64,000 nt of DNA from a bacterium (lineage in GTDB: Bacteria; Armatimonadota; Zipacnadia; Zipacnadales; Zipacnadaceae). Numbering within the stretch: the first letter of the stretch is position 1; every line of letters starts with the position of its first letter. Of the stretch, positions 2,945 to 23,918 are shown one piece after another. Made by a program: the position numbers and the translations under genes. The DNA lies in the NCBI GenBank assembly GCA_030615605.1, contig JAUWYY010000005.1, forward strand, positions 43,682 to 107,681, in the 5' to 3' direction. The notes beneath the pieces were generated by a model. It was not told the origin of the DNA and searched no databases. It saw only the letters and a list, made by a program, of their open reading frames with translations.

Positions 2945-3025
2945 ATCTATCTATGACCCTGGCTGGGGCCGGTGATTCACCGGCTGCTTGGAGACGAGGA
3001 GGTGATCCTGGTGCCGCAGGAGACG

Positions 3026-5704
3026 ATGTTTTCGATTATCCTCGCGGGGGGACGAGGAACACGGATGCGATCAGATTCCACCCATAAGGTCTGTTTTGAG
3101 GTGGGAGGCGTCCCAGTTATCTTACGAGCACTCCAGACCTATGAAGAGTGTGGAATAGACCACCACATAATCGTGGTGGGTGAGCTTGGTGAACAGGTTG
3201 TTTCCACTGTGGGAGACCATTTCACCAATGTGTCATTTGTCTACCAGCCAGTGCCTCTGGGTACGGGAGATGCCGCCAGGTGTGGAGCGCGTGGGCTGGC
3301 GGCGGCCGGCTACGAGGGCCTGGTTCTCGTGGTAGCGGGAGACCGGTTGCTTGCTCCGCGTGCTGTGAAAAAGTTGGTAGAAACGTGGCGCGAGTCCGGA
3401 AGCGACGGGGCATTCCTTGTTAGTCACAAGGAAGACAATCCCTTTTCTGGGAGGGTTGTATGCGACGACTCGGGGCGAGTTGCCGGTATTGTTGAAGCCA
3501 GCGAGATTGCGCTTTCGGAGGTTGTCAGCGCTCTGCAGAGGCACAGATACGGAAACGGCCAACACCTGGCATGCACTCCACTTCTGGAAGAGATTCACGC
3601 ACGTTTTCCGAACCCGGACAAGGCTGCTACGGCTTGCGGCAAACTGTACTCTGCCTTGGCAAGCCAGGATAGTGTCGCCAGTGCGGACTTGGGCGACCTC
3701 ATTGAACCTCTACGCGAAATGACCAGTCTGCAACTGTGGCTGAACAACGAGCCAACGCTTCTGCCCGCCTACGAGGCGGAGGAAATGACTTCTGAGGTGA
3801 ACCTCTCAGCCTATCTGTTTCCTGCTCCAGTATTGTTTGAAGGGCTTCGGGGTTTGACGACGGACAACGCACAGGGCGAAGAATTCCTGACCGACTGCGT
3901 AAACAGTCTTGCTGCAGCCCGCGACGATGGCGGACACCCCAGATACAGAATAACTACTGTGCTGGTAGATGAGCCTGACGATGCCCTGGCGTACAACACT
4001 CCTGGGGAACTGGCGGCAGTCGAGCGAAGGCTGCGTGCAGAACAGAGCGAGACCATTAAGATAGTCGAACGGCCCAAGTTCCTGCACGAACGGAGCCTGC
4101 GATCGGTCGCCCAGTGGCATACCTTGTTCGCCACCAATGCGCCAGAAGTCGAGGAGTTCATGAGCGATACTTATGGCCCCTCCGAAGAGGTACGGGAGAA
4201 GAAGCGGCAGGAGTATCTGGAGGCTCTGGAATGCTATGGTCGCCATCATGACTTCGATGAGCAGGTCTTCATTGTGCGGTCCCCCGGGCGCATTAATCTG
4301 TTGGGACGGCACGTTGACCACCGCGGAGGGCGGATTAACGTAGTAGCCATCAATGACGAGATTATCATGGTTGCTTCGCCCCGCGAGGATGACGTGATTG
4401 AGCTTCGTAACAGTGATGCGGAGGCCTTCCGGCCGGCTTCATTTTCTATCAGTCAAGAGGTCGCGAATCTAGACTGGGGGGACTGGCTGACCTGTGTCAA
4501 CAGCCCTAAGACCCTGGCTATGGTCAGTAATGGCCACTGGGAGAACTATGTGAAGGCAGCCGTGCTCCGCCTCCAGGAACGTTTCCGCGAGGTGCCTCTG
4601 CAGGGCCTGAAGGCGGTCACGCATGGTAGTATTCCCATAGGCTCGGGGCTCAGTTCCTCCTCGGCAGTGGTCGTGGCAGCTGCCGAAGCCATGGTCGCTC
4701 GCAACAACCTGCCTGTCCATGCCAATCTCCTGGTAGACCTATGCGGCGAGGGCGAATGGTTCGTGGGAACCCGAGGAGGCAGCGGGGACCACGCAGCCAT
4801 CAAGTTTGGGCGGCGCAGTCAGGTGGCTCACGTCGGCTTCTTCCCCTTTGAAGTCAAGGAATTCCTACCCTTCTTTGATGACCATTGTGTGGTGGTGTGT
4901 AACTCAGGCATAGAAGCCAGGAAGAGCGAACAAGCCAGGGCAACCTTTAACCGAAAAGTCCTGGGGTATGTGGCTGGCGAGATAATATTCAAGCAGCTCT
5001 TTCCCGCCTTTGCTCCGTCCATTCATCACTTGCGCGATATCTCTTGCCAAAACCTGGGCATCGAACTCGAAGACCTATACCGAATGCTCAAGCAACTGCC
5101 TCTTCGACTGACTCGGCAGGAACTGTTTGAGCAGTACGGGCCCTTTGATCCCTCCAGTAGCGAAAAACTTCGGAACCTCCTGTCTGGTATTCCCGAAGGT
5201 GACGACGCCTTTGAGGTCCGGGGTGTGATGCTTTTCGGCATAGCCGAATGCGACCGAAGCCGCAGGTGCGTGGAATACCTCCGACGCGGAGACGCTGAGG
5301 GCTTTGGCGAGTTATGGTACATATCGCATGATGGCGACCGAGTTGTGGCATACGATTCACAACTGCAGCCGCAGCCGTGGGACTATGAAGTGGATGATAG
5401 TTATCTGGATGCACTCATCGCCGACCTACAGAGCGGCGAGGCGGGCCGGGTGCAGAGGGCTCAGCTTCATAGACAGCCCGGTAAGTACGCCTGCAGCACC
5501 CCAGAAACTGACATGATTGTGGACATAGCCCGCAGGATACCGGGAGTCAAGGGGGCGCAGCTAGCCGGTGCGGGTCTGGGCGGATGCGTGATGGTGCTGG
5601 TGGAGGAACAAAGCTGTGACGAGTTGTTAGAGGCCCTTGAGTCTCATGACTTCGAGACAAAGCGATACTATCCTCCTGAAGGAGCTGGGCTCGTCATTGT
5701 GTAG
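3026..5704 (+). CDS. Bifunctional sugar-1-phosphate nucleotidylyltransferase (N-terminal) / galactokinase-like GHMP sugar-1-kinase (C-terminal)
   Basis: N-terminus MFSIILAGGRGTRM is the G-G-x-G-T-R NTP-transferase signature. C-terminal half carries the galactokinase signature GRINLLGRHVDHRGG and GHMP ATP-binding motif PIGSGLSSSSAVVVA. Start set at the ATG preceding the GGRGTR motif, with AGGAG 4 nt upstream. The longest ORF starts at 2972. Confidence 0.7.
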   Translation: MFSIILAGGRGTRMRSDSTHKVCFEVGGVPVILRALQTYEECGIDHHIIVVGELGEQVVSTVGDHFTNVSFVYQPVPLGTGDAARCGARGLAAAGYEGLVLVVAGDRLLAPRAVKKLVETWRESGSDGAFLVSHKEDNPFSGRVVCDDSGRVAGIVEASEIALSEVVSALQRHRYGNGQHLACTPLLEEIHARFPNPDKAATACGKLYSALASQDSVASADLGDLIEPLREMTSLQLWLNNEPTLLPAYEAEEMTSEVNLSAYLFPAPVLFEGLRGLTTDNAQGEEFLTDCVNSLAAARDDGGHPRYRITTVLVDEPDDALAYNTPGELAAVERRLRAEQSETIKIVERPKFLHERSLRSVAQWHTLFATNAPEVEEFMSDTYGPSEEVREKKRQEYLEALECYGRHHDFDEQVFIVRSPGRINLLGRHVDHRGGRINVVAINDEIIMVASPREDDVIELRNSDAEAFRPASFSISQEVANLDWGDWLTCVNSPKTLAMVSNGHWENYVKAAVLRLQERFREVPLQGLKAVTHGSIPIGSGLSSSSAVVVAAAEAMVARNNLPVHANLLVDLCGEGEWFVGTRGGSGDHAAIKFGRRSQVAHVGFFPFEVKEFLPFFDDHCVVVCNSGIEARKSEQARATFNRKVLGYVAGEIIFKQLFPAFAPSIHHLRDISCQNLGIELEDLYRMLKQLPLRLTRQELFEQYGPFDPSSSEKLRNLLSGIPEGDDAFEVRGVMLFGIAECDRSRRCVEYLRRGDAEGFGELWYISHDGDRVVAYDSQLQPQPWDYEVDDSYLDALIADLQSGEAGRVQRAQLHRQPGKYACSTPETDMIVDIARRIPGVKGAQLAGAGLGGCVMVLVEEQSCDELLEALESHDFETKRYYPPEGAGLVIV

Positions 5705-5783
5705 GCTGATTTCAATGTTACACAGTAATGGACGCCTGATCAAGTCAGGAGCGATGTCGCCAGAGAAAGGAACCGTGTAAGCG

Positions 5784-6716
5784 ATGGCAGTGTACTTGGT
5801 CACGGGCGGCGCGGGATTCATTGGTAGCAACATTGCTGCAGCATTGGTCAAACAAGGCGAAGAAGTACGAGTGCTGGACAACCTCTCCACCGGCAAACGC
5901 GAGAATATTGCTGGTTGGGAGGACGATATCTGGCTTGTTGAGCAAGATATCACAGACCTGGAAGCAATCAGGCCCGCGTTTGAGGGCGTGGATTATGTGT
6001 TGCATCAGGCGGCCTTGCCCTCGGTGCCCCGGTCTGTCGAGGACCCTATCGCTACCACCCAGGCCAACGTCAACGGCACATTGAATGTCTTGCTGGCTGC
6101 CCGCGATGCTGGAGTGGAGCGGGTGGTATACGCCTCATCTTCTTCGGTCTATGGTCAGAATCCTGACTTGCCTAAGCACGAGAGCATGCGTCCTGAGCCC
6201 ATCTCGCCATATGCAGCGTCCAAGTTGGCGGGAGAAACCTACACAGCCGCCTTCTACGAAGTCTACGGACTGGAGACCGTCTCTTTGCGCTATTTCAACG
6301 TGTTCGGGCCGCATCAGGATCCGGAGTCGCAGTACGCCGCAGTCCTTCCCATATTTGTCTCGCGGATGTTGGACGGTAAGCCACCTATGATCTTCGGAGA
6401 CGGCGAACAATCACGAGATTTCTCCTATGTCGCCAACGTGGTGTACGCCAACCTTTGCGCTGCTCAGGCGGAGGGGGCAGCAGGCCAAGTCTTCAACATC
6501 GCCTGCGGCCAGCGTAGCACGCTCAACCAACTGGTTGAGTATCTGAACGAAATACTGGGAACCGACTTCGAGCCGGAATATGCTTCCGAACGCCCCGGCG
6601 ACGTCAGACATTCATTGGCAGATATCTCCGCGGCCCGGGGAGTCCTCGGGTATGAACCACAGGTGGACTTCCGAGAAGGTCTTGACTTGGCGGCACAGTG
6701 GTATCAAGAAGGCTGA
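5784..6716 (+). CDS. NAD-dependent SDR epimerase, WbpP/TviC-like (UDP-GlcNAc / UDP-GlcNAcA 4-epimerase family)
   Basis: VTGGAGFIGSN Rossmann motif, LDNLSTGKRENI (cf. LDNFSTGHQYNL of WbpP/TviC), YASSSSVYG and YAASK (YxxxK). Confidence 0.75.
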   Translation: MAVYLVTGGAGFIGSNIAAALVKQGEEVRVLDNLSTGKRENIAGWEDDIWLVEQDITDLEAIRPAFEGVDYVLHQAALPSVPRSVEDPIATTQANVNGTLNVLLAARDAGVERVVYASSSSVYGQNPDLPKHESMRPEPISPYAASKLAGETYTAAFYEVYGLETVSLRYFNVFGPHQDPESQYAAVLPIFVSRMLDGKPPMIFGDGEQSRDFSYVANVVYANLCAAQAEGAAGQVFNIACGQRSTLNQLVEYLNEILGTDFEPEYASERPGDVRHSLADISAARGVLGYEPQVDFREGLDLAAQWYQEG

Positions 6717-6917
6717 GCAAACAGTGCAGAACCTGTGAGATTGGCGAACCGTTAAGTAGCACACTACTGGAATACTGATACTCGGAGCAGCCAAGATGAC
6801 CACAGATGAAGTGGATACCCGGGGGATAATTGCACTTGAGGCAGAGGGGGAGTGCGCGTACAGCAGCAGGTCGGAGGACTTCTTGCGTGACCTCAAATAT
6901 GGTATGCTTGAGCTATC

Positions 6918-7110
6918 ATGACAAGATTCAAAGAGTATAATCCAGAGCAACTGTTGCTTTTGCCGCCTGATCTTAGTGAGTGGCTGGCAGATGGCCGTCT
7001 GGCCATTCCATTCGCGATGTCGTCGGCGAACTGGACCTTTGTGAGATCTGCGCCGACTACGACTCCAGTGGTGATGGTCAATGCGGAATAAGAATCGAAA
7101 CAAGAAGAAA
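6918..7110 (+). pseudogene. Decayed remnant of an IS1182/IS5-family (DUF772-type) transposase N-terminus
   Basis: Short frame reads MTRFKEYNPEQLLLLPPDLSEWLADGRLA and then shifts frame into IRDVVGELDLCEICADYDSSGDGQCG. Together these resemble the conserved IS1182/IS5 N-terminus (YNPNQ.LLLPPSL.DWLPEDH.ARFI.EVVD.LDLS.I...Y...GRG). The remainder is degenerate, with a frameshift and stops. Confidence 0.35.
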
Positions 7111-7318
7111 GGCAGAGGAGGTCTTGGTCGTAGACCTCGGGCAAATTCCGCAACGTCAACCCAGGGCCGTCGAAGCAGACACGATAGGCCCACATCGTTG
7201 TGAAATGTCTCCTGGCTTGGCGAGCAGGCTAGGTTAGATTGAGGGGATGAATCAATGAGAATATTTCGACAGTAATATGGCGTAGTTCACCGAAAGTTGA
7301 AGAATTGGGAGAAGGCAC

Positions 7319-7347
7319 TTGACAAACAGAGAAGATTTTGCTATACT
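7319..7347 (+). promoter_or_regulatory. Consensus sigma70 promoter TTGACA-17-TATACT
   Basis: TTGACA at 7319-7324, exact 17-nt spacer, TATACT at 7342-7347. Lies in non-coding DNA. Confidence 0.5.
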
Positions 7348-7469
7348 ACAGACAAATTAGGCACCGGAGTTACAGCATTATGGCCGACCGCAGGCGACGG
7401 GGGGAGCTTGCTATCGAAGAGAAGACCTGACGATTCACGTTGATGTGTTTGATCGAGTAACAGACACAG

Positions 7470-7520
7470 CCACCGGTGTATTGACCGCAGAAGTTTGTGC
7501 GGACCGGTGGTTGTTTTGAT
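7470..7520 (+). terminator. Intrinsic terminator-like hairpin + T-tract
   Basis: CCACCGGTG...GACCGCA-gaagttt-TGCGGACCGGTGG stem followed by TTGTTTTGATT. About 125 nt downstream of the predicted TSS of the 7319 promoter. Confidence 0.45.
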
Positions 7521-7546
7521 TGGGGGGGTAAGACAAGGAGAGGGCG

Positions 7547-7591
7547 AAACCAAAAACAGGAAAGGGCCGAGGAGGTGTCGCTCCTCGGCCC
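7547..7591 (-). terminator. Intrinsic terminator (minus strand)
   Basis: Perfect 10-bp stem GGCCGAGGAG/CTCCTCGGCC with a 6-nt loop. On the minus strand it is followed by TTTCCTGTTTTTGGTTTC. Confidence 0.45.
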
Positions 7592-8018
7592 CAGGACAGA
7601 CTAAAACCCTGGCTCGGGCTTAGTGCTGCCGCTTGGTTAGCATTATAGCATATCGCCGCCACCGTTGTCAAGCCAGTCTCTCGGCGGCATGCAGCACCCC
7701 CGAGTACCCAACGGTTCACTTCTGTCTTACCCCCCTTATGGGTTCGCCAAACGCATAGGTGGCTCTGGCGGATCAATACCTGAAGACTTCGGTGGCTTGC
7801 ATCTTAACTGGAAGACACGCGCCGTACATTGGGGGAGAGAGGTTGCTGCACGAAAACATCCAGGAGGTGCCGCTCCTCTGTCCAGGATGTATCCAAGGCC
7901 CTGGTTCGGGGGGATACAGTGAACCGGACTCTCTCCCCCAATACTCATACATATCGCGGTGTCACGGACTGTCCGAAGTGACTTTGGGCACATCACCGGG
8001 GGTTGTGCTGGGAGGTGA

Positions 8019-9101
8019 ATGAAGATGGTGATCCAGAAGTGGGTTGGGGCACGGGTTGGCTTGATGGGCAACCCCTCAGACGGCTTCGGTGGCAAGACGA
8101 TTGCCTGTATGGTCCGCAACTTCGGGGCGCAGGCAATCTTGAGAGAAAGCAGTACCGTGGAGATTGTGCGGCATCCCATATACGATCCACTCTCTTTCAG
8201 CAGCTTGGAGCATCTGGAGGAGACGGCCGCGCACGATGGCTATTACGGCGGAATACGGTTGCTCTACGCCACTTGCAGCAAGTTTCATCACTACTGCCGA
8301 GAGCGCGGAATACATGTGCCTGACCGCAACTTCGCGCTGCAGTATGACACGAACATTCCTCGTCAAGTTGGCCTGGGAGGCTCGAGTGCCATTATTGCCG
8401 CGGTCCTTAAGGCACTAATGGAGTTTTATGAGCTCTCTGAGGATGACATTCCCAGGCCGGAGCAACCCAACTTGATTCTAGCGGTGGAGACCGACCAACT
8501 CGGCATTGCGGCGGGCTTGCAGGATCGTGTAGCCCAGACCTACGGCGGCCTTGTATACATGGATTTCGCTCCAGAATACATGGAAACGCACGGGCACGGT
8601 TATTATGAATACCTGGACATGGCTGAGCTACCCCCCATGTATCTCGCTTACAGTTGGGAGCCTTCCTATTCGGGGAAGATGCACAACATAGCGCGGCACC
8701 GTTTTAACCAGGGCGACAAGGAGGTCATCGAGGCAGTTCGACGCTGGGCTGCCTATACAGATCAGGCCCGAGAGGCCATTGCGGACAAAGACTGGCGCAC
8801 ATTTTCCGTGTTGATGGATATGAACTTCGATCTGCGCCAGCGGGTGTACGGAGCCGAACACTTGGGCCGGGGCAACCTGGAAATGATCAACCTGGCCCGG
8901 AAACATGGCCTGCCCGCGAAGTTCGCAGGCTCGGGCGGAGCCGTCGTCGGCTTCTGCGAGGACCGTAGCTCGCTACGCAAGGCCGAGCAATCATTCTCTG
9001 AGCATGGGTACGGATTTGCGGTGCTGGAACCGGCTGATTACGAAAGTATCAATGACGCAGTGGAAGCTGGCGTCCCAAACGGCTCGCGAGTCTACGTTTG
9101 A
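8019..9101 (+). CDS. Glucuronokinase-like GHMP sugar-1-kinase (plant GlcAK homolog)
   Basis: ARVGLMGNPSDGFGGKTIA, DGYYGGIRLLYATCSKF, YDTNIPRQVGLGGSSAIIAAVLKAL, GIAAGLQDRVAQTYGGLVYMDF and FAGSGGAVVGFC closely track remembered Arabidopsis glucuronokinase motifs. Strong RBS GGGAGGTGA upstream. Confidence 0.8.
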   Translation: MKMVIQKWVGARVGLMGNPSDGFGGKTIACMVRNFGAQAILRESSTVEIVRHPIYDPLSFSSLEHLEETAAHDGYYGGIRLLYATCSKFHHYCRERGIHVPDRNFALQYDTNIPRQVGLGGSSAIIAAVLKALMEFYELSEDDIPRPEQPNLILAVETDQLGIAAGLQDRVAQTYGGLVYMDFAPEYMETHGHGYYEYLDMAELPPMYLAYSWEPSYSGKMHNIARHRFNQGDKEVIEAVRRWAAYTDQAREAIADKDWRTFSVLMDMNFDLRQRVYGAEHLGRGNLEMINLARKHGLPAKFAGSGGAVVGFCEDRSSLRKAEQSFSEHGYGFAVLEPADYESINDAVEAGVPNGSRVYV

Positions 9102-9260: not shown

Positions 9261-9962
9261 ATGGCCCAAACAGTAGTCGTTGAAAGAACCGAAGAAGATT
9301 CACGGGTAAGCGTCCAAGACGCGGCTGTCCAGCCTATCATTGCAGCCGACGATGTCATCGCACGGCCTCGAGGGTACGGAAGGGCCAAGCGAGTGACGGA
9401 TGTGTTCGCAGCAGCAGCAGGACTCATTGTAACTCTACCCTTGTGGGTGCTTACTGCCCTCCTCATAAAGCTCAGCAGCCGCGGGCCCGTTCTGTTCCGC
9501 CAAGAAAGGCCAGGCAAAGACGGTAAGCCATTCCGGATGCTCAAATTCCGTACTATGGTGCACGATGCAGAAAAAAGACTGCACGAAGTCATTGATATTG
9601 AGGACACTGCTGATCCGCTGATAAGGCTGAAAGACGACCCCAGGGTCACGGGAGTAGGACATCTGCTGCGGGTAACCAGTATTGACGAGCTACCGCAACT
9701 CATCAATGTCTTGCGAGGCGAAATGAGTCTCGTCGGGCCCCGCCCAATCTCCCGACCCTTGCGGGACCCGCGCAATGCGCTTCGGCTCAAAGTCACACCA
9801 GGGATAACTGGCCTCTGGCAGATCTCGGGACGAAAGAACCACAACACAGATTATATGCTCGAGAAAGATATGGAGTACTTGCAGCGGCGTTCGCTCGGCT
9901 TTGACCTACTATTGCTGTTGAAGACTGTGGTCGCCGTCATCAAGGCTGATGGCGCCAGATAG
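9261..9962 (+). CDS. Polyprenyl-phosphate sugar-1-phosphate transferase (bacterial sugar transferase, PglC/WbaP C-terminal domain type)
   Basis: KRVTDVFAAAAGLIVTLPLWVLTALLI TM helix, RPGKDGKPFRMLKFRTM, LPQLINVLRGEMSLVGPRP. These are classic PF02397 motifs. Confidence 0.9.
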   Translation: MAQTVVVERTEEDSRVSVQDAAVQPIIAADDVIARPRGYGRAKRVTDVFAAAAGLIVTLPLWVLTALLIKLSSRGPVLFRQERPGKDGKPFRMLKFRTMVHDAEKRLHEVIDIEDTADPLIRLKDDPRVTGVGHLLRVTSIDELPQLINVLRGEMSLVGPRPISRPLRDPRNALRLKVTPGITGLWQISGRKNHNTDYMLEKDMEYLQRRSLGFDLLLLLKTVVAVIKADGAR

Positions 9963-10623
9963 AAGACATACTGTGAAGACTGAAGAGACCAAAGCTATAA
10001 TTTCAAAACGGCGATGGATGCAAGCCGTAGTGTTGGTAGCCTTGATTGCCACAATGAGCATCGGCTGGCATGAACGGAGAGAGGTATCTGCGGCAGATAT
10101 TCCTCTGGCGCAATTGCCGCAGGAGCTTAGGGGATGGCAGACCGTGCAGGAAGAAGTAAGTCTGTCGGAGGGTGGCGCTTACAGACTGCTCGAGCGCACG
10201 TACGAAAATGGTGACGGATACAGGCTGCACATGACAGTTCAGGCTACGCATACCCGTCTCGGGAGTTTGCGCGATTGGTCGCTGTCGAGTATGGCGGAGG
10301 GTTGGTCAGTCGAGGACGAATCCATTTGGAGCAGCGCTCGGGAATCTGCTGTACGGGCACGGATACAGAGATTGGTCAAGGGCGCGCGTTCCCGGGTAGC
10401 TCTGACCTGGTACACTTCAGCTGAATCTCACGCACCGACCTTGCAGTCGGCTACCTTGAAGGCCTGGCGCGACCGGCTGCTCGGTGGCAAGAAGCCGTGG
10501 GCAAGCTTGTACATGGTAGCGGAGACGACGTCGGACACTGCGGCCGAAGACTCCGTAACGGACTTAGCACAACAGTTGGGGCCTGAGCTGCAACAATTGA
10601 TGTCCGAACTGGGACCGCAGTGA
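9949..10623 (+). CDS. epsI: Exosortase-associated EpsI-family protein
   Basis: N-terminal TM helix followed by LPQELRGW...YRLLERTYENGDGYRLHMTVQ...AEGWSV...RVALTWYTSAES, matching the EpsI pattern (L.GW...L..dyl.RtY.n..g..v.l.vaY......GW.....valYWY). Overlaps the upstream stop by 14 nt. Confidence 0.7.
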   Translation: MAPDRRHTVKTEETKAIISKRRWMQAVVLVALIATMSIGWHERREVSAADIPLAQLPQELRGWQTVQEEVSLSEGGAYRLLERTYENGDGYRLHMTVQATHTRLGSLRDWSLSSMAEGWSVEDESIWSSARESAVRARIQRLVKGARSRVALTWYTSAESHAPTLQSATLKAWRDRLLGGKKPWASLYMVAETTSDTAAEDSVTDLAQQLGPELQQLMSELGPQ

Positions 10624-10685: not shown

Positions 10686-12392
10686 ATGGCTGTAGACGAG
10701 ACGTCTCAGACCGCACAAAACGCTCGCAGGTCGCACCAGGCGCGAGCCCGCGCTCGGCATCGGGACTTGACTGAAAGGCTCAACGTGTTCGCCAAGGCGG
10801 TTGGCCTGGGCGTGTTGATCGTTCTCATAGGCATAGGCGCCTTTGGGCGATTCTATTCCATTCGGTTTAATGGCCTGGCATCCGCAGACGCTATGGATGC
10901 TGGCCAGATAGCTGAACAGCTACGATATGGGCGCGGTCTATCAACCCGAGTGATCCGTCCTCTTGCACTATCATATGCTGGAGTAAACGAGGACGGCGTA
11001 ATGCCGGAGATGCTGCACGCGCCTTTGTATCCGTTGTTACTGTCCTGGCTATTCAAGGTCCGGGGGGGGGGAGACGCCTCAGTAGTCATGTTTAATGGCC
11101 TGGCCTTCTTACTCACTGGTTGGGTGCTGTATGCCATAGCAAGAAGACTCTGGGAAAAGACCACAGGAGTAGTGGTCGTAATCTTATATTTCGTCAGTGT
11201 GGAGGCATTGGGTAACGTCTTGACTGCCTCCGGAGCATCACTGACTGGGTTGTTGATCACGCTCGCAATATGGGCGGCCTTGCGCCAGCGCGAGACATTG
11301 GAGGCTATCCAAGAACAGAGTCAAGGGCTTACAGACCGTCGGTGGTTTATCGGGCCGGCAATAGTAGGGGGCCTATTTGGGCTAACTTATCTGGCTGGTC
11401 TCGCTTCTTTACTGTTGGTGCTCCCCTTAGCTTTCCTGGCCATCACCCGGGCCCGCCGCCTGCAACAAGCTGCAGTCATGGCAATTGTCGCGCTCGTGGT
11501 GATGGTGCCGTGGTTTGTACACAACTTAGCGGCAACTCACACCCTGTTCCCGGCTTTGTCCACCTACAAACTTCTGACGTACACCGACACTTATCCCGAT
11601 AATTCGGTGTTTCAACAGCTACCCGGCCAGGTGCCATCACCGGCTTCATTCATAGTTGCTCACCCCGGAGAGTTGGTGAAGAAAGTAGCGTGGGGCCTCA
11701 CTCGCCTGTACCGTCCGGTTGCTCGATTGGTTAGCCCATACCTGTTTCCCTTCTTTCTGCTTGGCGGATTGTGGTTCGGGGCCGCCAGTCCAAGGCGAGC
11801 CCTATGGCGAACGGTAATGGCAATGTTGGCCATTCAGGTTCTCACTATCTGCCTATATGAACACAACCTAGAGGCAATTATGCTCTTCACGCCCATAGTG
11901 CTATGCTTGGCCGCTGGAGGTGGTCTGCAAGCCTTGCGGGGCACCGGGGCTTCCCGGCTCTCTCAGGGTCTGGTAATAGGAGCCGTTTTCGCTGTGGTCC
12001 TATTCCCTACTGTAGGCTCCATGGTACTGGGAGGAAGAGTGGAGATAGACCGGTCGGCTGCCAGCCTGGGCCTACTCCGCAAGGGTCTGACGAGCGATGC
12101 GGTGATCGCTACGGACAAAGCGCCGGCAGTGGCTTGGTCCGCAAGTAAGCAAGCAGTGCTACTGCCTAGCAAACCTGAGGACCTGAGAGTGCTGGAAGAG
12201 CAAGGCATCACGGTCGACTACGTCTACTTCTCTCACAAAGTTTTAGGGCCAGAAATTCGGCCCTACTTCCAGCCCTGGCGAAGCGAAAAGGCCGCCGAGT
12301 ATCTGGGCAAACCGTTAGCCATTGGCTACGGAGAAATGCTTTTCGAGCGAAATGACAAGAGAGCCGTAGGAGATGTTGGCTCAACTGGCTAG
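10686..12392 (+). CDS. GT-C fold membrane glycosyltransferase, ArnT/PMT (GT39/GT83)-like
   Basis: About 11 predicted TM helices in the N-terminal two-thirds. A D/E-containing first periplasmic loop (SADAMDAGQIAEQLRYGRG) resembles ArnT/PMT. The C-terminal soluble domain is about 130 aa. Contains a G10 tract. Confidence 0.5.
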   Translation: MAVDETSQTAQNARRSHQARARARHRDLTERLNVFAKAVGLGVLIVLIGIGAFGRFYSIRFNGLASADAMDAGQIAEQLRYGRGLSTRVIRPLALSYAGVNEDGVMPEMLHAPLYPLLLSWLFKVRGGGDASVVMFNGLAFLLTGWVLYAIARRLWEKTTGVVVVILYFVSVEALGNVLTASGASLTGLLITLAIWAALRQRETLEAIQEQSQGLTDRRWFIGPAIVGGLFGLTYLAGLASLLLVLPLAFLAITRARRLQQAAVMAIVALVVMVPWFVHNLAATHTLFPALSTYKLLTYTDTYPDNSVFQQLPGQVPSPASFIVAHPGELVKKVAWGLTRLYRPVARLVSPYLFPFFLLGGLWFGAASPRRALWRTVMAMLAIQVLTICLYEHNLEAIMLFTPIVLCLAAGGGLQALRGTGASRLSQGLVIGAVFAVVLFPTVGSMVLGGRVEIDRSAASLGLLRKGLTSDAVIATDKAPAVAWSASKQAVLLPSKPEDLRVLEEQGITVDYVYFSHKVLGPEIRPYFQPWRSEKAAEYLGKPLAIGYGEMLFERNDKRAVGDVGSTG

Positions 12393-12516: not shown

Positions 12517-13131
12517 ATGAGACGGTTTAGTATAATGAGCTTCGCCTGCGTAGTCGTACTAGTTGCGCTGGCGGCGGGTACGGGGTACCCCATTATCATC
12601 GAGAACGACACGTACTACTGGCCCCCGGGGACCGTTGAGGGTACCTGTGACCTGAAGGTCGAGGAGGACGTCTACTACATCGACTACGAGCTCTCCGACC
12701 CGGCTGATGCCCTAAATTGGGTGTACTTGACGCCGGGTGACCCAGACGGCAAGTACCTGTACCGATACACCGTTACTCGGGTGAATTGGACCGAGGGTGT
12801 TACGGAGTGGGGCTACGCCATGCCCGGAATTGGGTTTGAGTACGCCAATTCGCCGGTGGGCTGGGCCCCCGGTGGCCCCGCAGGTACTGACGTGGGCTGG
12901 TATGACACGGATGTCGACCCAAACGGGCCCATCGTCGACGCCCTGGATAGCTTCATGATCTGGTCTGACGCCGCGCCGTTCGTCCTGTACGCCGGCACGG
13001 CCACAGGCACCGATGAAGGCACCGTGACTGGAGAGGTCTCCGGGCCGACGCCGGAGCCGATCACCATGGCTCTGCTGGCGCTCGGTCTGCCGCTGGGGCT
13101 CCTCGCTAGCCGACGCAGGAAAGAAGACTGA
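12517..13131 (+). CDS. PEP-CTERM sorting-signal protein (exosortase substrate)
   Basis: N-terminal signal peptide MRRFSIMSFACVVVLVALAAG. C-terminus is PTPEPITMALLALGLPLGLLASRRRKED, i.e. PEP + TM helix + Arg-rich tail. Strong RBS AAGGAGGTGA. Confidence 0.8.
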   Translation: MRRFSIMSFACVVVLVALAAGTGYPIIIENDTYYWPPGTVEGTCDLKVEEDVYYIDYELSDPADALNWVYLTPGDPDGKYLYRYTVTRVNWTEGVTEWGYAMPGIGFEYANSPVGWAPGGPAGTDVGWYDTDVDPNGPIVDALDSFMIWSDAAPFVLYAGTATGTDEGTVTGEVSGPTPEPITMALLALGLPLGLLASRRRKED

Positions 13132-13196: not shown

Positions 13197-14282
13197 ATGT
13201 GCGATGTTGCATGGGAGCACAGACTGTTCGAGTTCTGTAAGCTGTATACGATGAAGATACCCGATTATATCAAGCAAAACCGCCTGGCAATTGCCTGGGC
13301 AGGCGCAGTGGCAGTACTGCTCGTGGGGATGTACTGGGAAGCCGGCTCAGTGTTTGTCAGACGCTGGCTCGGCGAATCCGCATACTACCACTGCATGGCG
13401 GTGCCCGCCATTGCCGGCTGGCTGCTGTGGCGGCGCTGGGAGCGTGTGGTGGACGCCGAGCGAAAGACGTGGTTGCTAGGTTTCGTGCTGCTGGGCTTTG
13501 GGTTGCTTATGTACCTGGGATACGCACGAACCGGTGTGCGTATGGCCGCCGGGGTAGCGTTTCCTGTCATCCTGGCGGGCATCGTGGGCGCCGTCTATGG
13601 TCGCCGGCTGTTGAAGATTACGGCTGTGCCTATTGGCTTGCTGATCTTCGCAGTTCCCTTTCCGGAGCACGCTATTGGCATGGTTGCCATGCCCATGCAG
13701 AAGATTTCGGCTGTTATTACGGGAAAAGTAGCGCCTCTGCTGGGCCTGCAGGTGGTGCAACAGGGCATCAACCTGGATCTGCATGGATTTAGTTTCGTGG
13801 TCGCCGAGGAATGCAGTGGCATGCATTCTCTGGTGGCTTTGCTACTTACTGGAGTGGTGCTGGTCGAACTGTCGCAACTTCACAAATACCGTAAAGTCAT
13901 CTCTATTGCAGTCATTCTGCCTATCGTATTGCTGGCGAACGTAGTGCGACTCACTGTAGTGCTCTTGCTCGCCGAGTACTTTGGTCCCGAGCTAGCCCTG
14001 GGTGCGATGGTGCATGGCTTCTCGGACATCATAGTCTACCTTGCAGCGATGCTCGGTTTCATTCTGTTTATTGGCTGGCTGTATGAACATCAGACCAAGC
14101 CACAATCTGGAGACATGCCGTCGTCACCCCCTAGGGCTCCAGGGGGACTTGTGGTTCATGTTCCCGACGAACTGCTGGGTTACTACGAAGTAGCGAAAGC
14201 TGGCGCTTCTCAGCTCGGCGAAGAGCTGGTAGGGAGTAGCCGGTCGGGCGCGAAGAGTCAGACCGAGGAGGCCCGGCAATGA
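13197..14282 (+). CDS. Exosortase (Xrt/EpsH family transmembrane transpeptidase)
   Basis: Polytopic membrane protein with the exosortase active-site motif VVAEECSGMHSL (conserved Cys). Alternative start at 13251 (MKIPDY). Sits next to a PEP-CTERM gene and near EpsI. Confidence 0.85.
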   Translation: MCDVAWEHRLFEFCKLYTMKIPDYIKQNRLAIAWAGAVAVLLVGMYWEAGSVFVRRWLGESAYYHCMAVPAIAGWLLWRRWERVVDAERKTWLLGFVLLGFGLLMYLGYARTGVRMAAGVAFPVILAGIVGAVYGRRLLKITAVPIGLLIFAVPFPEHAIGMVAMPMQKISAVITGKVAPLLGLQVVQQGINLDLHGFSFVVAEECSGMHSLVALLLTGVVLVELSQLHKYRKVISIAVILPIVLLANVVRLTVVLLLAEYFGPELALGAMVHGFSDIIVYLAAMLGFILFIGWLYEHQTKPQSGDMPSSPPRAPGGLVVHVPDELLGYYEVAKAGASQLGEELVGSSRSGAKSQTEEARQ

Positions 14283-15442
14283 AGATCGCCATGCTGGGTG
14301 TCAAGGCAGTCCCTTGTGCGGGTGGGATCGCAGCGTATGCCGAGCAACTCGGCAAGCGACTTGTGGAGCGAGGCCATGAGGTAACGGTCTACTGCCGCCG
14401 CCAGTATCTTGACGGCGACGCTGGTTCTTCAGCTCTTCGGCCACATAACGGACTGAGGCGCAGAGCCACACCGGGACTACGCGGCAAGTACCTGGATGCC
14501 GTCACCCACACTTTCACCGCCGCGCTCGATTCACTGTGGCAGGACTACGATATCATTCATATTCACGGCTCTGCCCCAGCAGTGGTGGCACCGTTGCTGC
14601 GATTGCGTCCCGGCCGCCGCTTGGTTGTCACGATTCATGGTGTGGACTGGCAGGGAGGCAAATGGGGTCCCTTGGCGACGGGGGGCATGAGAATTGCAGC
14701 AAACACGCCAGTTCGGTTTGCCCACGAACTCACTGTAGTCTCCCAGGGTCTGCAACAATTCTACCGGGACAACTTCGGACGAGAGACGACCTACATACCG
14801 ACCGGGGTTGAGCTGCCCGAAATCCTGCCCCCGCGTGAGATCAGGGACACGTGGAATCTGGATACTGACGACTACTTGCTCTTTGTAGGCCGCCTCACGC
14901 CGGAAAAAGGCCTGCAATACCTGCTATCAGCCTATGAGACCCTTGATACTGAGAAGAAACTGGTGATAGTTGGAGACGCTAACTTCAAGGATTCCTATGT
15001 AGACGATTTGAGAAAGCTCGCGACGGATGATGTGATATTCACTGGCTATCGCAAGGGTCGTACTCTTACGGAGCTTTTCTCGAACGCATATCTGTACGTA
15101 CAGCCCTCAACATTGGAGGGCATATCGGTGGCTGTGCTTGAGGCCCTCAGTTACGGCCGTTGTGTGTTGGCCAGTGATATTCCGGGCAACCAGGAAGTCC
15201 TAGGAGAATGCGGCCATACCTTCCAGGCGGGCAATGTAGACGACCTGCGCCGCAAGCTAGCGATGCTCGTGGATGATCCGGACTTAGTCGCAGCTCAGTA
15301 CGGCGCAGCCAGAGACTATGTACGCTACGAGCACAACTGGGAGACGACCACTGACCAATTTGAGGGGCTCTACCGTCGGGTAGTAGGCGAAGACCTAAGG
15401 GATGTGACGAGTAAGAGTGCCGTAACAGCGAAGGTAGAATAG
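14279..15442 (+). CDS. Glycosyltransferase family 4
   Basis: MKIAMLG...GGIAAYAEQLGKRL N-terminal GT-B domain. EGISVAVLEALSYGRCVLASDIPGNQEV motif. ATGA overlap with the exosortase stop. Confidence 0.85.
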   Translation: MKIAMLGVKAVPCAGGIAAYAEQLGKRLVERGHEVTVYCRRQYLDGDAGSSALRPHNGLRRRATPGLRGKYLDAVTHTFTAALDSLWQDYDIIHIHGSAPAVVAPLLRLRPGRRLVVTIHGVDWQGGKWGPLATGGMRIAANTPVRFAHELTVVSQGLQQFYRDNFGRETTYIPTGVELPEILPPREIRDTWNLDTDDYLLFVGRLTPEKGLQYLLSAYETLDTEKKLVIVGDANFKDSYVDDLRKLATDDVIFTGYRKGRTLTELFSNAYLYVQPSTLEGISVAVLEALSYGRCVLASDIPGNQEVLGECGHTFQAGNVDDLRRKLAMLVDDPDLVAAQYGAARDYVRYEHNWETTTDQFEGLYRRVVGEDLRDVTSKSAVTAKVE

Positions 15443-15489: not shown

Positions 15490-16860
15490 GTGAGAATATC
15501 GGTCATAGGCGCGGGGTACGTAGGTTTAGTGCTGGGAAGCTGTATGGCAGAGAGCGGGGTGGATGTCGAGCTGATAGATATTGACCACGGTCGCGTCCGC
15601 CTTCTGAACAAGGGAATGGTCCCCCTGCACGAGCCTGGACTAAAGGAATTGCTTGTATCCAACCTGGAGGCGGGCGGTATTGCGTTTACTGCCTCTTATC
15701 CCAAAGGACTGCGTGGTGCGCAGGTCGCCTTTGTGGCGGTGGGCACTCCTCCGTTGCAAGACGGAGGTGCAGACCTCAGCGGTGTCAAGGCAGCCGCCGC
15801 AGAAGTTGCCCGCTATGCTGCTGCTGATTTAGTTTTGGCGATTAAGAGCACAGTCCCGGTGGGGACTGCATCGCAAGTTCGACAGCTACTCGCCGATGAG
15901 GGGCGCACCGACATCGAAGTCATCTCTAACCCCGAATTTCTCCGCGAAGGCCGAGCAGTTGAAGACTTCCTCCATCCTGACCGTGTGGTAATCGGGACCA
16001 ACTCCGCAGAAGCTGCCCGGCTTATGAAGTCTCTATATCGGCGCTTCTTGGATTCTGACATCCCTGTTATGGTCATGGACAATGCCTCGGCCGAGATGAC
16101 CAAATATGCCTCCAACGCTTTTCTGGCTACCCGGATATCATTTGTCAATGAAATAGCCAACATTTGCGAGCACGTGGAGGCAAATGTTGACGATGTGGTT
16201 CGAGCCATGGGCGCAGACCGGCGCATAGGTAGCCATTATCTATATCCTGGTTGTGGCTACGGCGGATCGTGTTTCCCTAAGGACGTACAAGCCCTTATCA
16301 ATATGGCCAATGGTAACCGATATGCAGCCAGTCTGCTTTCTTCTGTTCACCAGACCAATATTAACCAGAAGCGGCGGTTGGGTGAGAAGATCGCTGACTA
16401 CTTTGCCGGTACGCTGCGGGGCCGGATGATCGGCGTGTGGGGACTGTCGTTCAAAGAAAACACTGATGATGTTCGTGAATCGCCGAGTTTAACACTAATA
16501 GACTACCTAGTTGGAAAAGGTGCTCGTGTTCAGGTATTTGATCCTGCCTCGCTGCACCGCGTACCCGATATCTTCCCCGATGGCGTGACTGCATGCCGCG
16601 ATCAATATGACGCCGTACGCGATGCGGACGCCCTTGCAGTGGTAACGCCGTGGGAACAGTTCCGCAGCCCCGATTGGGAACGAGTGAAATCGCTGCTGAA
16701 ACATCCTGCAGTGTTCGACGGCCGCAACCTCTATGATCCTGATCAGTTGATGGATATGGGCTTCGCTTACGATGGCTTCGGTCGCCCCAATGGACATCAA
16801 ATTCGACCTGTGTTACAGGATAGCGATCTCGTAGATACTCAGCTCATCACTCAAGGATAG
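15490..16860 (+). CDS. ugd: UDP-glucose 6-dehydrogenase
   Basis: GTG start after GGAGGTG. MRISVIGAGYVGLV Rossmann motif. Catalytic GYGGSCFPKD motif. Confidence 0.9.
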   Translation: MRISVIGAGYVGLVLGSCMAESGVDVELIDIDHGRVRLLNKGMVPLHEPGLKELLVSNLEAGGIAFTASYPKGLRGAQVAFVAVGTPPLQDGGADLSGVKAAAAEVARYAAADLVLAIKSTVPVGTASQVRQLLADEGRTDIEVISNPEFLREGRAVEDFLHPDRVVIGTNSAEAARLMKSLYRRFLDSDIPVMVMDNASAEMTKYASNAFLATRISFVNEIANICEHVEANVDDVVRAMGADRRIGSHYLYPGCGYGGSCFPKDVQALINMANGNRYAASLLSSVHQTNINQKRRLGEKIADYFAGTLRGRMIGVWGLSFKENTDDVRESPSLTLIDYLVGKGARVQVFDPASLHRVPDIFPDGVTACRDQYDAVRDADALAVVTPWEQFRSPDWERVKSLLKHPAVFDGRNLYDPDQLMDMGFAYDGFGRPNGHQIRPVLQDSDLVDTQLITQG

Positions 16861-17037
16861 TCGGGGCATCTATGCGAGTGCCGTGTTTGGATGGTAAAAC
16901 TAATGCTAAGAGTCGTCAGAAGAAGAATACTGTCAGACTTGGGGGAGTACTGACGAGGCTATCGTGACTTGGTGAGTTAGCACCTTTTGGAATGTGGGAA
17001 CCAAGTCCCAATAGCCGAGAATGGAGGATATGGTGCG

Positions 17038-18369
17038 ATGAAATTGATTTCGAGATTGAAGAATCGGGACGCGCAGATCGGTGTCATTGGCCTCGGTTAC
17101 GTGGGACTCCCCCTGGCCATGGAGTTTGCCAAAGCGGGATTCCAGGTGCACGGAGTGGACACCAGTGAAGAAGTCGTAAGACGAGTTAAGGAGTGCTGCC
17201 CCGCGTGCAAGGATGTCTCTCCGGAACTGCTAGCCAAACTGATTGCAGCCGGGCGTTTTGAACCTACGACTGACTACGATGCATTGCGGGATTGCGACGC
17301 AATATGCATTTGTGTGCCGACACCTCTTGCCGCCGATCGAGAACCGGATCTCTCGTTCGTGGAGTCCGCCTCGCGGGAAATTGCGGCCCGTCTCCGCGCT
17401 GACCAACTGGTAGTGCTGGAGAGTACAAGTTACCCTGGGACGACTGCCGAGGTTGTGCTGCCCATCCTGAGTAGCAATGGTCTCGCTGTCGGACAGGACT
17501 TTTTCCTGGGCTACTCGCCGGAGCGTGTGGACCCCGGTAATAAGACGTACACGGTCAAGAATACACCCAGATTGGTTGCCGGCATAACGCCCCCATGCTT
17601 GGAGGCTACCGTCACCCTTTACTCCCAAATAGTAGACCAGGTGGTGGAGGTCTCCAGCCCGGCGGCTGCCGAGATGGCCAAGCTCTTGGAGAACACGTTC
17701 CGTGCTGTGAATATTGCCCTGGTAAACGAAGTAGCGTTGCTCTGCGACCGGCTCGGCTTGAACGTGTGGGAGATCATTGAGGCAGCGGCGACTAAGCCCT
17801 TTGGCTTCATGAAATTCACTCCTGGTCCTGGTGTCGGCGGCCATTGCATCCCCGTGGACCCGCACTACCTGTCCTGGAAGGCCCGGCAGCACGGCTTTAA
17901 TACCAGGCTTGTGGACGTAGCGACTCAGGTAAACGCACAAATGCCAGAGCATGTTACACATAAGGTGGCCGCGGCTCTCAGCGAGCACGGAATACCCATT
18001 GACCAGGCCAGCGTCCTGATACTAGGAGTGGCCTATAAGCCTGATGTCGGGGATGTCCGGGAAACGCCGGCTGCCGGCATAATCGAGGGATTGGCACAAA
18101 AGGGTGCAAAAGTGACCTACCATGATCCCTTCGTGCCTGAGTTTTCGGCGAATGGCTACAGAATGCACTCTCAACAGATGACCGAGGAATTGTTGGCCAG
18201 TTCGGATTGTGTTGTTTTGGTGACCAACCACTCAGCATATTCCCACGGGAGGATAGCTGAGAAAGCGAAAATACTGATCGACACACGAAACTCGGTCAAG
18301 AGCTGCAATGGGCGGACGACCGAGAACGTCATCTCGATGTATGAGGTAACTGGGCAAGGGCAGGGGTAA
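17038..18369 (+). CDS. UDP-N-acetyl-D-glucosamine / -mannosamine 6-dehydrogenase (WbpA/WecC/TviB family)
   Basis: IGVIGLGYVGLPLA Rossmann motif. GVGGHCIPVDP catalytic-Cys motif typical of UDP-HexNAc dehydrogenases. Start at MKLISRLK after GGAGGA. The longest ORF starts at 16987. Confidence 0.85.
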   Translation: MKLISRLKNRDAQIGVIGLGYVGLPLAMEFAKAGFQVHGVDTSEEVVRRVKECCPACKDVSPELLAKLIAAGRFEPTTDYDALRDCDAICICVPTPLAADREPDLSFVESASREIAARLRADQLVVLESTSYPGTTAEVVLPILSSNGLAVGQDFFLGYSPERVDPGNKTYTVKNTPRLVAGITPPCLEATVTLYSQIVDQVVEVSSPAAAEMAKLLENTFRAVNIALVNEVALLCDRLGLNVWEIIEAAATKPFGFMKFTPGPGVGGHCIPVDPHYLSWKARQHGFNTRLVDVATQVNAQMPEHVTHKVAAALSEHGIPIDQASVLILGVAYKPDVGDVRETPAAGIIEGLAQKGAKVTYHDPFVPEFSANGYRMHSQQMTEELLASSDCVVLVTNHSAYSHGRIAEKAKILIDTRNSVKSCNGRTTENVISMYEVTGQGQG

Positions 18370-23531: not shown

Positions 23532-23918
23532 GCACAGTGGGGGCCCCGCCAAGCCTGCACACACTGTGCACGCGGATCTGCGCAACGAACGCGCAGCCCC
23601 GCCGGTGTTGGCTTGTACCTGATGCGGCTTACAGCTCACAGACGAAGGGATCAACCAAGCCACGCCCCAACTGGGTGCAATACCTCGCGGCGACGAGACC
23701 CCCCCGCTGAAGGGCACTGTCTCATAAGCCCGCCCGGATCACCAAGTGATTTGCGCACTCCTTGCACGTTAGCGGCCGACAGTCGCGGTGTTTGCCCATT
23801 TCGGCTGTGTTCTTGTGGCGTCGTTGGATCGCGGTCGCCAGGTCCGCATGACCGTGGGAGGGATTATTGGCTCCCGCGGTCAATGTTCGTGGGAGATAGT
23901 GTTCCCACACCGGACCTG

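Follow-up and report, generated by a model that had tools for sequence, protein, structure and literature searches.

Does a bacterial exopolysaccharide (EPS) locus hold a plant-like pathway for the salvage of uronic acids, and do the two sugar kinases encoded there belong to one pathway? The locus in question, a PEP-CTERM/exosortase EPS locus of an uncultured Armatimonadota bacterium, occupies the first ~25 kb of the + strand of a 64,000-nucleotide stretch of contig JAUWYY010000005.1 (assembly GCA_030615605.1, positions 43,682 to 107,681), which is referred to here as the window. An earlier note had drawn attention to two of its genes, one for a homologue of plant glucuronokinase (GlcAK) and one for a fusion of a sugar-1-phosphate nucleotidylyltransferase to a GalK-type sugar-1-kinase, and had presented both as uronic-acid salvage enzymes. 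Both are called in the public annotation on one 184-kb NCBI contig, the fusion with 897 amino acids (aa) and the kinase with 358 aa, and the relatives come almost entirely from Armatimonadota metagenome-assembled genomes. On balance, we favor the reading that the EPS locus contains two independent sugar-salvage modules: a GlcAK orthologue, and a kinase/uridylyltransferase fusion of N-acetylhexosamine (HexNAc) type that is accompanied by an epimerase.

A glucuronokinase homologue at the head of an exosortase operon

The open reading frame (ORF) of the kinase spans 8019-9101 and encodes 360 aa. The public call, 358 aa from ATG 8025, fits the ribosome-binding site (RBS) GGGAGGTGA located 8 nt upstream. 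The protein matches the Pfam families PF00288 (7.6e-12) and PF08544 (4.7e-7), and its GHMP motif II (P-x-x-x-G-L-x-S-S-A) reads NIPRQVGLGGSSAI. In BLASTP it shares 48% identity and 66% positives over 308 aa (E = 1e-97) with the plant glucuronokinase P0005; this comparator is an Ambrosia protein of that name with a tandem two-copy gene model, and is not one of the assayed Arabidopsis or zebrafish proteins. The two sequences align through the motifs GNPSD, YYGG[IV]RLL, YDTNIPRQxGLxGSSAI, GLQDRVAQxYGGLxYMDF and FxGSGGAVVxFC. Every motif by which the earlier note had likened the protein to plant glucuronokinase is thus present, within an identity that extends over nearly the full length. Conservation of at least 95% is seen at 87 positions across the 117 aligned bacterial homologues, and 77 of these positions have the same residue in the plant enzyme. 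Other GHMP families are much more distant: heptose kinases in the PDB reach ~43 bits, and the NCBIfam model for mevalonate kinase gives 44 bits where its cut-off is 163. Membership of the 8025-9101 product in the plant/animal glucuronokinase family is well supported by these comparisons.

Bacterial homologues as such are not new. The paper on the cloning of Arabidopsis GlcAK (PMC2823444) mentions them in "a few bacteria" and names Dyadobacter and Verrucomicrobium, and IMG already labels many homologues "glucuronokinase" automatically. Our literature search found no paper in which a bacterial member was assayed. The statement that such salvage is rarely described in bacteria consequently holds for the biochemistry, and not for the genes. 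What is new is that, in one Armatimonadota clade, the kinase gene opens a conserved exosortase-EPS operon. In the related loci L006, L007/L008 and L009/L010, where the kinase is 65-84% identical, it stands first in the same block, which continues with a phosphoglycosyl transferase, EpsI, a PMT_2-like protein, small proteins, an exosortase and a family 4 glycosyltransferase (GT4), with pairwise identities of 47-81%.

Architecture and distribution of the fusion protein

The maximal ORF of the fusion, 2972-5704, starts with GTG and encodes 910 aa. The public call begins at GTG 3011 and yields 897 aa (P0121, 100% identical), in agreement with the RBS GAGGAGGTGA 7 nt upstream of that codon; a start at ATG 3026 would yield 892 aa. 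The earlier note had located the ORF correctly, with the minor slip of pairing 910 aa, which belongs to GTG 2972, with position 3026. Within this single ORF, Pfam detects NTP_transf_3 (2.4e-15) and NTP_transferase PF00483 (2.9e-11), both at about aa 20-175, followed at aa 428-891 by GalKase_gal_bdg (1.3e-11), GHMP_kinases_N (1.3e-14) and GHMP_kinases_C (4.1e-7). The same scan gave no match to PF07959, the domain of the Fkp type. Domains of both enzymes with intact catalytic residues bear out the proposed union of a nucleotidylyltransferase with a GalK-type kinase in an Fkp-like logic. In a confident AlphaFold model built with 49 family members (predicted local distance difference test score, pLDDT, 86), an alpha/beta domain with a helical insertion (1-345) is joined by a helical linker (355-412) to a two-lobed kinase (418-897). 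The parts of the fusion, numbered from GTG 3011, are as follows.

3011-4045, + strand: N-terminal nucleotidyltransferase domain, aa 1-345 (motifs, GlmU alignment)
3506-3772, + strand: family-specific helical insertion of ~90 aa, aa 166-254 (phmmer gap against GlmU, model helices 163-237)
4046-4261, + strand: linker, aa 346-417, a low-confidence loop (346-358) and then four helices (355-412) (model secondary structure, pLDDT)
4262-5704, + strand: C-terminal GalK-type GHMP kinase domain, aa 418-897 (motif II IPIGSGLSSSSA, motif III GAGLGGC)
4277-4330, + strand: variant galactokinase signature RSPGRINLLGRHVDHRGG (translation; codon of Arg433 at 4307-4309)
4766-4792, + strand: catalytic loop GTRGGSGDH with Arg588 and Asp593 (translation)

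More than 200 database proteins share this ~900-aa architecture, and when one genome was scanned for each species, at least 441 species genomes proved to encode the fusion. Its carriers belong to the Armatimonadota, Planctomycetota, Verrucomicrobiota, Lentisphaeria (including Victivallis vadensis), Chloroflexota, Spirochaetes, Latescibacterota and Omnitrophota, and the family resides mostly in the Planctomycetota-Verrucomicrobiota-Chlamydiota (PVC) group, the Chloroflexota and the Armatimonadota. Since the same single ORF recurs in hundreds of genomes, a mis-assembly or frameshift artefact is ruled out. An exhaustive HMMER search with the N-domain and linker returned 143 clusters (50% identity) at E <= 1e-30, among them apparently genuine stand-alone N-domains of ~345 aa. 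We found no description of the fusion family in the literature, and nothing on the PDB entry 9ulx, "AbGHMP".

One stand-alone N-domain homologue of 350 aa, helical insertion included, is encoded in L094:1985-6508, flanked on one side by a GH123 gene and on the other by one for an alkaline ceramidase. Beta-N-acetylgalactosaminidases make up the glycoside hydrolase family GH123. This context suggests a part in the breakdown of glycosphingolipids or N-acetylgalactosamine (GalNAc).

The N-terminal domain resembles GlmU

In NCBIfam, the galactokinase model TIGR00131 is the top match of the fusion overall; its score of 129 bits is below the cut-off of 226.65. The top nucleotidyltransferase models are those of GlmU, with up to 116 bits against cut-offs of at least 367; MurU is far weaker at 32 bits. 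With phmmer, residues 6-165 and 255-301 of the N-domain align to residues 3-157 and 160-206 of Streptococcus pneumoniae GlmU, with paired segments such as EVNLSAYLF/EINTGTYVF and DNAQGEEFLTD/NNAQGEYYITD. The ~90-residue insertion lies between the positions that match residues 157 and 160 of GlmU, follows a GIVE motif and is poorly conserved in the family. The G-rich loop LAGGRGTRMRSDSTHK (LAGGRGTRM...HK26) is one residue longer than that of GlmU, before the catalytic Lys. GlmU's C-terminal beta-helix acetyltransferase is replaced by the helical linker and the kinase, and Pfam found no Hexapep match in the fusion.

Residue conservation was assessed in an alignment of 119 family members. K26 of the G-rich loop is invariant and R18 is kept in at least 90%, with G14 and G16 also present; Q79, G84, T85, G110-D111 and E162 are invariant, and N264, listed together with Y268 as a motif, is kept in at least 90%. 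N329, the putative equivalent of GlmU N227, is also kept. The GlcNAc-binding residues of GlmU (equivalents of E154 and N169) are retained as well. With R18, K26, D111 and the other catalytic residues of a pyrophosphorylase conserved, a degenerate N-domain is ruled out. By its sequence, the N-domain is specifically GlmU-like and not a generic nucleotidyltransferase. Pfam scans and the comparison with L009 turned up no second nucleotidyltransferase in the window.

The kinase domain and its variant galactokinase signature

The C-terminal domain has the GalK fold with the full GalK set of domains, comprising the PF10509 signature domain and the GHMP N and C domains. Its best match is human GALK2, a GalNAc kinase (96.7 bits), followed by GALK1 (82.8), yeast Gal1 (~82) and the prokaryotic GalK proteins (60-68), and IMG names many members of the fusion family "N-acetylgalactosamine kinase". 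The catalytic R427, aligned to both GALK1 (R37) and GALK2, is invariant, and D593, the equivalent of the general base Asp186 of GALK1, is present in 118 of the 119 members. The ATP motifs II and III are conserved. The signature departs from the canonical G-R-x-N-[LIV]-I-G-E-H-x-D-Y, reading GRINLLGRHVDH, with the His and Asp kept; it aligns with GRVNLIGEHTDYN of GALK1 and GRVNIIGEHIDYC of GALK2, and throughout the family it takes the form R-S-P-G-R-x-N-x-x-G-R-H-x-D-H-[QR]-G-G.

Two gene blocks side by side

The fusion belongs to a block of two GT4 genes, the fusion and a short-chain dehydrogenase/reductase (SDR) epimerase, which is conserved in Armatimonadota (L001, L011, L016, L017) with the epimerase directly downstream of the fusion in all four. 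In the PDB, the SDR at 5784-6716 scores 284 bits to WbpP and 268 to WbgU, as against 150 to MoeE5 and 140 to the Bacillus cereus UDP-glucuronate 4-epimerase (BcUGAepi). TviC is its best NCBIfam match, below the cut-off, and IMG names its homologues UDP-glucose 4-epimerase. The de novo route to UDP-uronic acids that had been read into the locus therefore stands in part: a Ugd-like gene is present at 15490-16860, and a UDP-glucuronate 4-epimerase-like gene lies at 23613-24908, the SDR beside the fusion being of the WbpP/WbgU type.

Beyond this block, the surroundings of the fusion vary. A tblastn search with the GlcAK, Ugd, phosphoglycosyl transferase and other proteins of the window, run against 83 other fusion loci with 10 kb of flank on either side, found no GlcAK homologue; the epimerase and the GT4s alone came up again, and this solely in Armatimonadota. 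When ~1000 crude ORFs around the fusion were clustered, no cluster was common to more than six loci. Pfam assigned 101 families to 64 adjacent same-strand neighbors and 137 families to 130 more neighbors within 4.5 kb, without enrichment in either set; the top count was Epimerase, with five members. Outside the Armatimonadota the fusion has no conserved neighbor, as one would expect of a general salvage gene.

In the syntenic locus L009, an AsnB-like amidotransferase gene (4823-6784) fills the slot of the fusion and epimerase, and the GlcAK block is unchanged. L009 also has a GalU-like nucleotidyltransferase gene (16292-17215) after the exosortase, which has no counterpart in the window. The genes that supply nucleotide sugars to the EPS locus appear, from such comparisons, to be swappable cassettes. 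Because none of the 83 loci links the two genes, and because of the slot swap in L009, we regard the fusion and the GlcAK homologue as modules that lie side by side and not as a conserved pair. Against the proposal of the earlier note that they form one uronic-acid salvage system stand this absence of linkage in two separately conserved blocks, the GlmU-like and GALK2-like halves of the fusion and the WbpP/WbgU type of its epimerase.

A small ORF, 6918-7091 (MTRFKEYNPEQLLLLPPDLSEWL...), apparently what is left of the N-terminal part of an IS-type transposase, lies between the fusion/epimerase module and the leader of the GlcAK block. DDE_Tnp_1 fragments occur at the equivalent place in L009/L010, which suggests that the junction of the two blocks is a hot spot of rearrangement.

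Proposed pathways and competing explanations

Module 1 (8025-9101), an orthologue of glucuronokinase (EC 2.7.1.43), would most likely, by family membership, phosphorylate free D-glucuronic acid (GlcA) at C1 with ATP. The resulting GlcA 1-phosphate would then have to be uridylylated by a pyrophosphorylase. Since the kinase gene heads an operon that contains a priming transferase and an exosortase, the salvaged GlcA would be expected to feed EPS synthesis in addition to what Ugd supplies de novo. Module 2 (3011-5704 and 5784-6716) would carry out two consecutive steps on one 897-aa protein: the C-terminal kinase would phosphorylate the anomeric hydroxyl of a free sugar, and the N-terminal GlmU-type domain would convert the sugar 1-phosphate and UTP into a UDP-sugar. 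The sugar is most likely a HexNAc (GalNAc or GlcNAc) or a close derivative. The WbpP/WbgU-type epimerase would then interconvert the C4 epimers, and the WecC/TviB-like dehydrogenase encoded downstream could oxidize the product to a UDP-HexNAc-uronic acid. The GlmU-like N-domain, the kinase nearest to GALK2, the IMG name and the type of the epimerase do not resemble uronic-acid salvage, and they make a sugar of the UDP-N-acetylhexosamine type, rather than an NDP-uronic acid, the most likely product.

Several observations weigh against this two-module reading. The substrates of both bacterial enzymes are predictions, as are the specificity for UTP and the flow of the products into the EPS; what they are built on is domain architecture, family membership, intact catalytic residues and synteny. 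More distant GlcAK homologues (52-57% identity) stand in unrelated contexts and not in EPS loci, so that the EPS link is a feature of one Armatimonadota clade. A GlcA 1-phosphate pyrophosphorylase is not evident in the window, the GalU-like gene of L009/L010 lacking a counterpart there, and no source of free GlcA was found at the locus. No neighbor of the fusion is conserved outside the Armatimonadota, and the support from context comes from one phylum and from the single case of L094. GALK2 is only modestly ahead of GALK1 as a match to the kinase domain, at ~20-25% identity. Finally, the Glu of the galactokinase signature is Arg433 in 112 of the 119 members and Ser in the other seven, and Arg588, present in 117 of 119, stands at the Glu of the GALK2 loop GTEGGGMDQ, for which the family has GTRGGxxDH. 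Two acid-to-Arg changes near the predicted sugar site suggest an anionic substituent; a plain neutral HexNAc leaves them unexplained.

These changes are the starting point of the rival that survives best, which we consider possible though rather doubtful: the fusion may act on an anionic N-acetylhexosamine derivative, such as the uronic acid of GalNAc or GlcNAc (GalNAcA, GlcNAcA), a sulfated HexNAc or N-acetylmuramic acid (MurNAc), with Arg433 and Arg588 binding the acidic group. The TviB/TviC-like genes of the locus would produce HexNAc-uronic acid de novo, and the fusion would recover it. The presence of a WecC/TviB-like dehydrogenase and a TviC/WbpP-like epimerase fits such a role, enzymes of the WbpP/TviC type acting on UDP-HexNAc and UDP-HexNAcA, and so does the concentration of the family in PVC bacteria and Chloroflexota, many of which degrade sulfated or acidic glycans. 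The retained equivalents of E154 and N169, on the other hand, disfavor anything bulky at O3, for instance MurNAc's lactyl group, and most fusion loci have no uronic-acid genes nearby. The argument also leans on the signature Glu, which in GalK structures contacts O6 of the sugar, a role (that of Glu43 in GALK1) for which our literature searches retrieved no support, and which is replaced by Ala in plant galacturonic acid (GalA) kinase. A sharper form of the same idea, which we hold to be unlikely, has the fusion serve solely to salvage an acidic amino sugar, best GalNAcA or GlcNAcA, that would be clamped by Arg433 and Arg588 and converted directly into UDP-HexNAcA. Were it true, the EPS locus, with its GlcAK homologue, would recycle both of its uronic-acid building blocks, and the family found in at least 441 species would represent a nucleotide-sugar salvage route known in no organism.

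It is similarly unlikely that the glucuronokinase homologue has a different substrate or role in this clade, for example another sugar acid or an EPS precursor destined for the priming transferase. Such a role would accord with its invariable position at the head of the exosortase-EPS operon, where the phosphoglycosyl transferase gene comes next, with the de novo Ugd route already present in the locus and with the missing cognate pyrophosphorylase and GlcA source; 48% identity is no guarantee of the same specificity. Against it stand the 77 of 87 conserved positions that are identical in plant glucuronokinase, the high specificity for GlcA of the plant and zebrafish enzymes despite their ancient separation (PMC2823444, PMC3938481), and the 52-57% homologues outside EPS loci, which imply that the function of the family is not tied to the operon.

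Least probable of all is that the fusion is a GalA/GlcA or pentose/deoxyhexose 1-kinase joined to an NDP-sugar pyrophosphorylase and forms one system with the glucuronokinase, its N-domain possibly uridylylating GlcA 1-phosphate: for all that the genes lie 2.3 kb apart, that the locus has Ugd and a UDP-GlcA-epimerase-like SDR, that the window holds no other recognized nucleotidyltransferase and that Glu-to-Arg would suit a C6 carboxylate, both halves of the fusion are nearest to HexNAc-specific enzymes, the IMG family name points to N-acetylgalactosamine, the adjoining epimerase prefers WbpP to UDP-GlcA 4-epimerase by 284 to 140 bits, and neither the 83 other fusion loci nor L009, with its AsnB-like gene and intact GlcAK block, keep the two genes together.

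Organization of the locus and of the remaining window

The features of the EPS locus are listed below, with the evidence for each in brackets.

10-537, + strand: C-terminus of a Wzy-like protein
613-1785 and 1709-2944, + strand: two GT4 glycosyltransferases (Pfam; synteny with L001, L011, L016)
2972/3011/3026-5704, + strand: fusion ORF, predicted GlmU-type uridylyltransferase (N-terminal) and GalK/GALK2-type kinase (C-terminal) (ORF, Pfam, NCBIfam)
5784-6716, + strand: SDR 4-epimerase of WbpP/WbgU/TviC type, predicted to act on UDP-HexNAc or UDP-HexNAcA (PDB matches, NCBIfam)
6717-8018, + strand: ORF-poor stretch of 1.3 kb
8019/8025-9101, + strand: glucuronokinase-family GHMP kinase (Pfam, BLASTP, IMG names)
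9261-9962, + strand: small phosphoglycosyl transferase (Pfam)
9949-10623, + strand: EpsI/DUF3485 (Pfam)
10686-12392, + strand: PMT_2-like membrane protein (Pfam)
12517-13131, + strand: PEP-CTERM-type protein (Pfam)
13197-14282, + strand: exosortase (Pfam)
14279-15442, + strand: GT4 (Pfam)
15490-16860, + strand: Ugd-like UDP-glucose 6-dehydrogenase (NCBIfam TuaD, 438 bits)
16987-18369, + strand: WecC/TviB-like UDP-HexNAc dehydrogenase (NCBIfam archaeal UDP-N-acetylmannosamine dehydrogenase, 296 bits; TviB, 233 bits)
19228-23049, + strand: 1273-aa beta-helix protein (Pfam)
23613-24908, + strand: second SDR, UDP-glucuronate 4-epimerase-like (PDB 6zl6, 220 bits; MoeE5, 182 bits; Pfam)

The first two GT4 ORFs as listed overlap by 77 nt (1709-1785), and a start codon later than ATG 1709 is probable for the second. 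The scores of both nucleoside diphosphate (NDP)-sugar dehydrogenases lie below the equivalog cut-offs and above the cut-off of the NDP-sugar dehydrogenase subfamily. The 1273-aa protein combines a right-handed beta-helix (Pel9A-like) with CarboxypepD_reg and FlgD-Ig domains and may be a secreted glycanase or lyase that acts on the EPS polymer. The nearest relatives of the second SDR are the UDP-glucuronate 4-epimerases BcUGAepi and MoeE5. If its TTG start is correct, it has an N-terminal extension of ~114 aa, reminiscent of the membrane-anchored plant GAE enzymes; the ORF may also be over-extended.

The rest of the window, 25617-64000, is an integrase-rich mobile and defense island. It contains five tyrosine recombinase genes (at 25617, 27287, 36524, 49646 and 56926), a HerA-like ATPase gene beside one for a SIR2_2 protein (32948-36075), an Eco57I/MmeI-type restriction-modification fusion (40921-44022), a gene with an FGE-sulfatase domain (39818-40885), and genes for HD-CE, Dam, ParB and AAA_25 proteins. 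GC skew is strongly raised across ~26-36 kb.

The leader of the GlcAK block and a candidate small RNA

The leader of the GlcAK block, 6717-8018, is conserved at the DNA level, with 76% identity over 1061 nt to L006 and 70% over 372 nt to L009. Its + strand has a near-consensus promoter, TTGACA-17-TATACT, at 7319-7347, which would give a 5' untranslated region of ~670 nt that runs antisense through the element described next. This element looks like a small RNA (sRNA) gene on the - strand: a candidate gene of ~80 nt lies at 7550-7671, with a degenerate second copy at ~7850-7915. It has a perfect sigma-70 promoter, TTGACA-18-TATAAT with TG (7671->7642), a conserved hairpin of ~40 nt (GCAGCACUAAGCCC-GAGCCA-GGGUUUUAGUCUGU) and a terminator made of a 12-bp GC-rich hairpin (7592->7563) and a U-tail; the fold has a z-score of -4.17. 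Across loci, the -35 and -10 boxes are conserved and the spacers vary, and L007 shows four compensatory pairs in the terminator stem.

Copies of the element elsewhere are as follows.

L006: 1135-1245
L007: 9590-9690
L009: 6897-6990, 9001-9092 and 9513-9605
L102: 92-207
L108: 1107-1235

The full element of ~130 nt was found only upstream of GlcAK-like genes, at a distance of 350-450 nt, with three to four copies in L009. Rfam gave no match in the 1.3-kb leader. A metagenome scan with an 18-mer from the leader element returned 56 loci, five of which match the profile of the leader element (E <= 1e-3), the other 51 looking like chance matches; four of the five carry the full ~130-nt element, and L096 is a marginal, partial match.

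Significance

If the fusion works as predicted, nature would have in it a single polypeptide that takes a free amino sugar to a UDP-activated donor, built from a domain pair other than that of Fkp, and bifunctional enzymes of this kind are sought for one-pot synthesis of UDP-sugars. Hundreds of species, drawn from the PVC bacteria, the Chloroflexota and the Armatimonadota, encode members of its family, which has no functional name. The conserved switch from Glu to Arg in its sugar-binding signature is a testable candidate for a specificity determinant of GHMP sugar kinases. As the GlcAK homologue heads an exosortase-EPS operon, its position suggests that salvage of GlcA of the plant type may also feed the synthesis of a bacterial exopolysaccharide.

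Comparison with known systems

The kinase of module 1 resembles Arabidopsis GlcAK1 (At3g01640, EC 2.7.1.43) and the kinase domain of zebrafish GKUP, both of which, like it, are GHMP kinases of ~360 aa with the motifs of the family. In GKUP, the glucuronokinase is coupled to a bacterial-type nucleotidyltransferase (PMC3938481). The enzyme described here differs from both in being bacterial, stand-alone, placed at the head of an exosortase/PEP-CTERM EPS operon and known from its sequence, and in having neither a USP-type nor a fused pyrophosphorylase beside it.

The fusion shares its order of parts, nucleotidyltransferase, helical linker and GHMP kinase in ~900-950 aa, with the L-fucokinase/GDP-fucose pyrophosphorylases (Fkp/FKGP/AFKP80), of which Bacteroides Fkp joins a pyrophosphorylase to a GHMP kinase through a linker of three helices (PMC11982464). 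In contrast to Fkp, its N-domain is of the GlmU type, with neither a beta-helix nor PF07959, its kinase is of the GalK/GALK2 type and not of the fucokinase type, and the predicted nucleotide is UTP and not GTP. Fkp was not found among the PDB sequence matches or the top structural matches of the fusion. To judge by its domains, the fusion was assembled independently of Fkp, from other domain families. Compared with human GALK2 and GalK, it has Arg433, Arg588, several insertions and a fused uridylyltransferase, at ~20-25% identity; compared with GlmU, its N-domain lacks the left-handed beta-helix and has the ~90-aa insertion and an extra residue before the catalytic Lys.

For the synthesis of UDP-GalNAcA, the known pairs are TviB/TviC and WbpO/WbpP. 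The locus similarly has a TviB/WecC-like dehydrogenase and a TviC/WbpP-like 4-epimerase, although here the genes score below the equivalog cut-offs and lie 10 kb apart. The chemistry predicted for the fusion is that of NahK with GlmU or AGX1 and of AmgK with MurU, in which an anomeric kinase and then a uridylyltransferase lead to a UDP-amino sugar and bypass de novo synthesis. NahK and AmgK are kinases of the APH type and not GHMP kinases, and they are separate proteins from their uridylyltransferases; in the fusion, a GHMP kinase and a GlmU-type domain would perform the same two steps on a single polypeptide.

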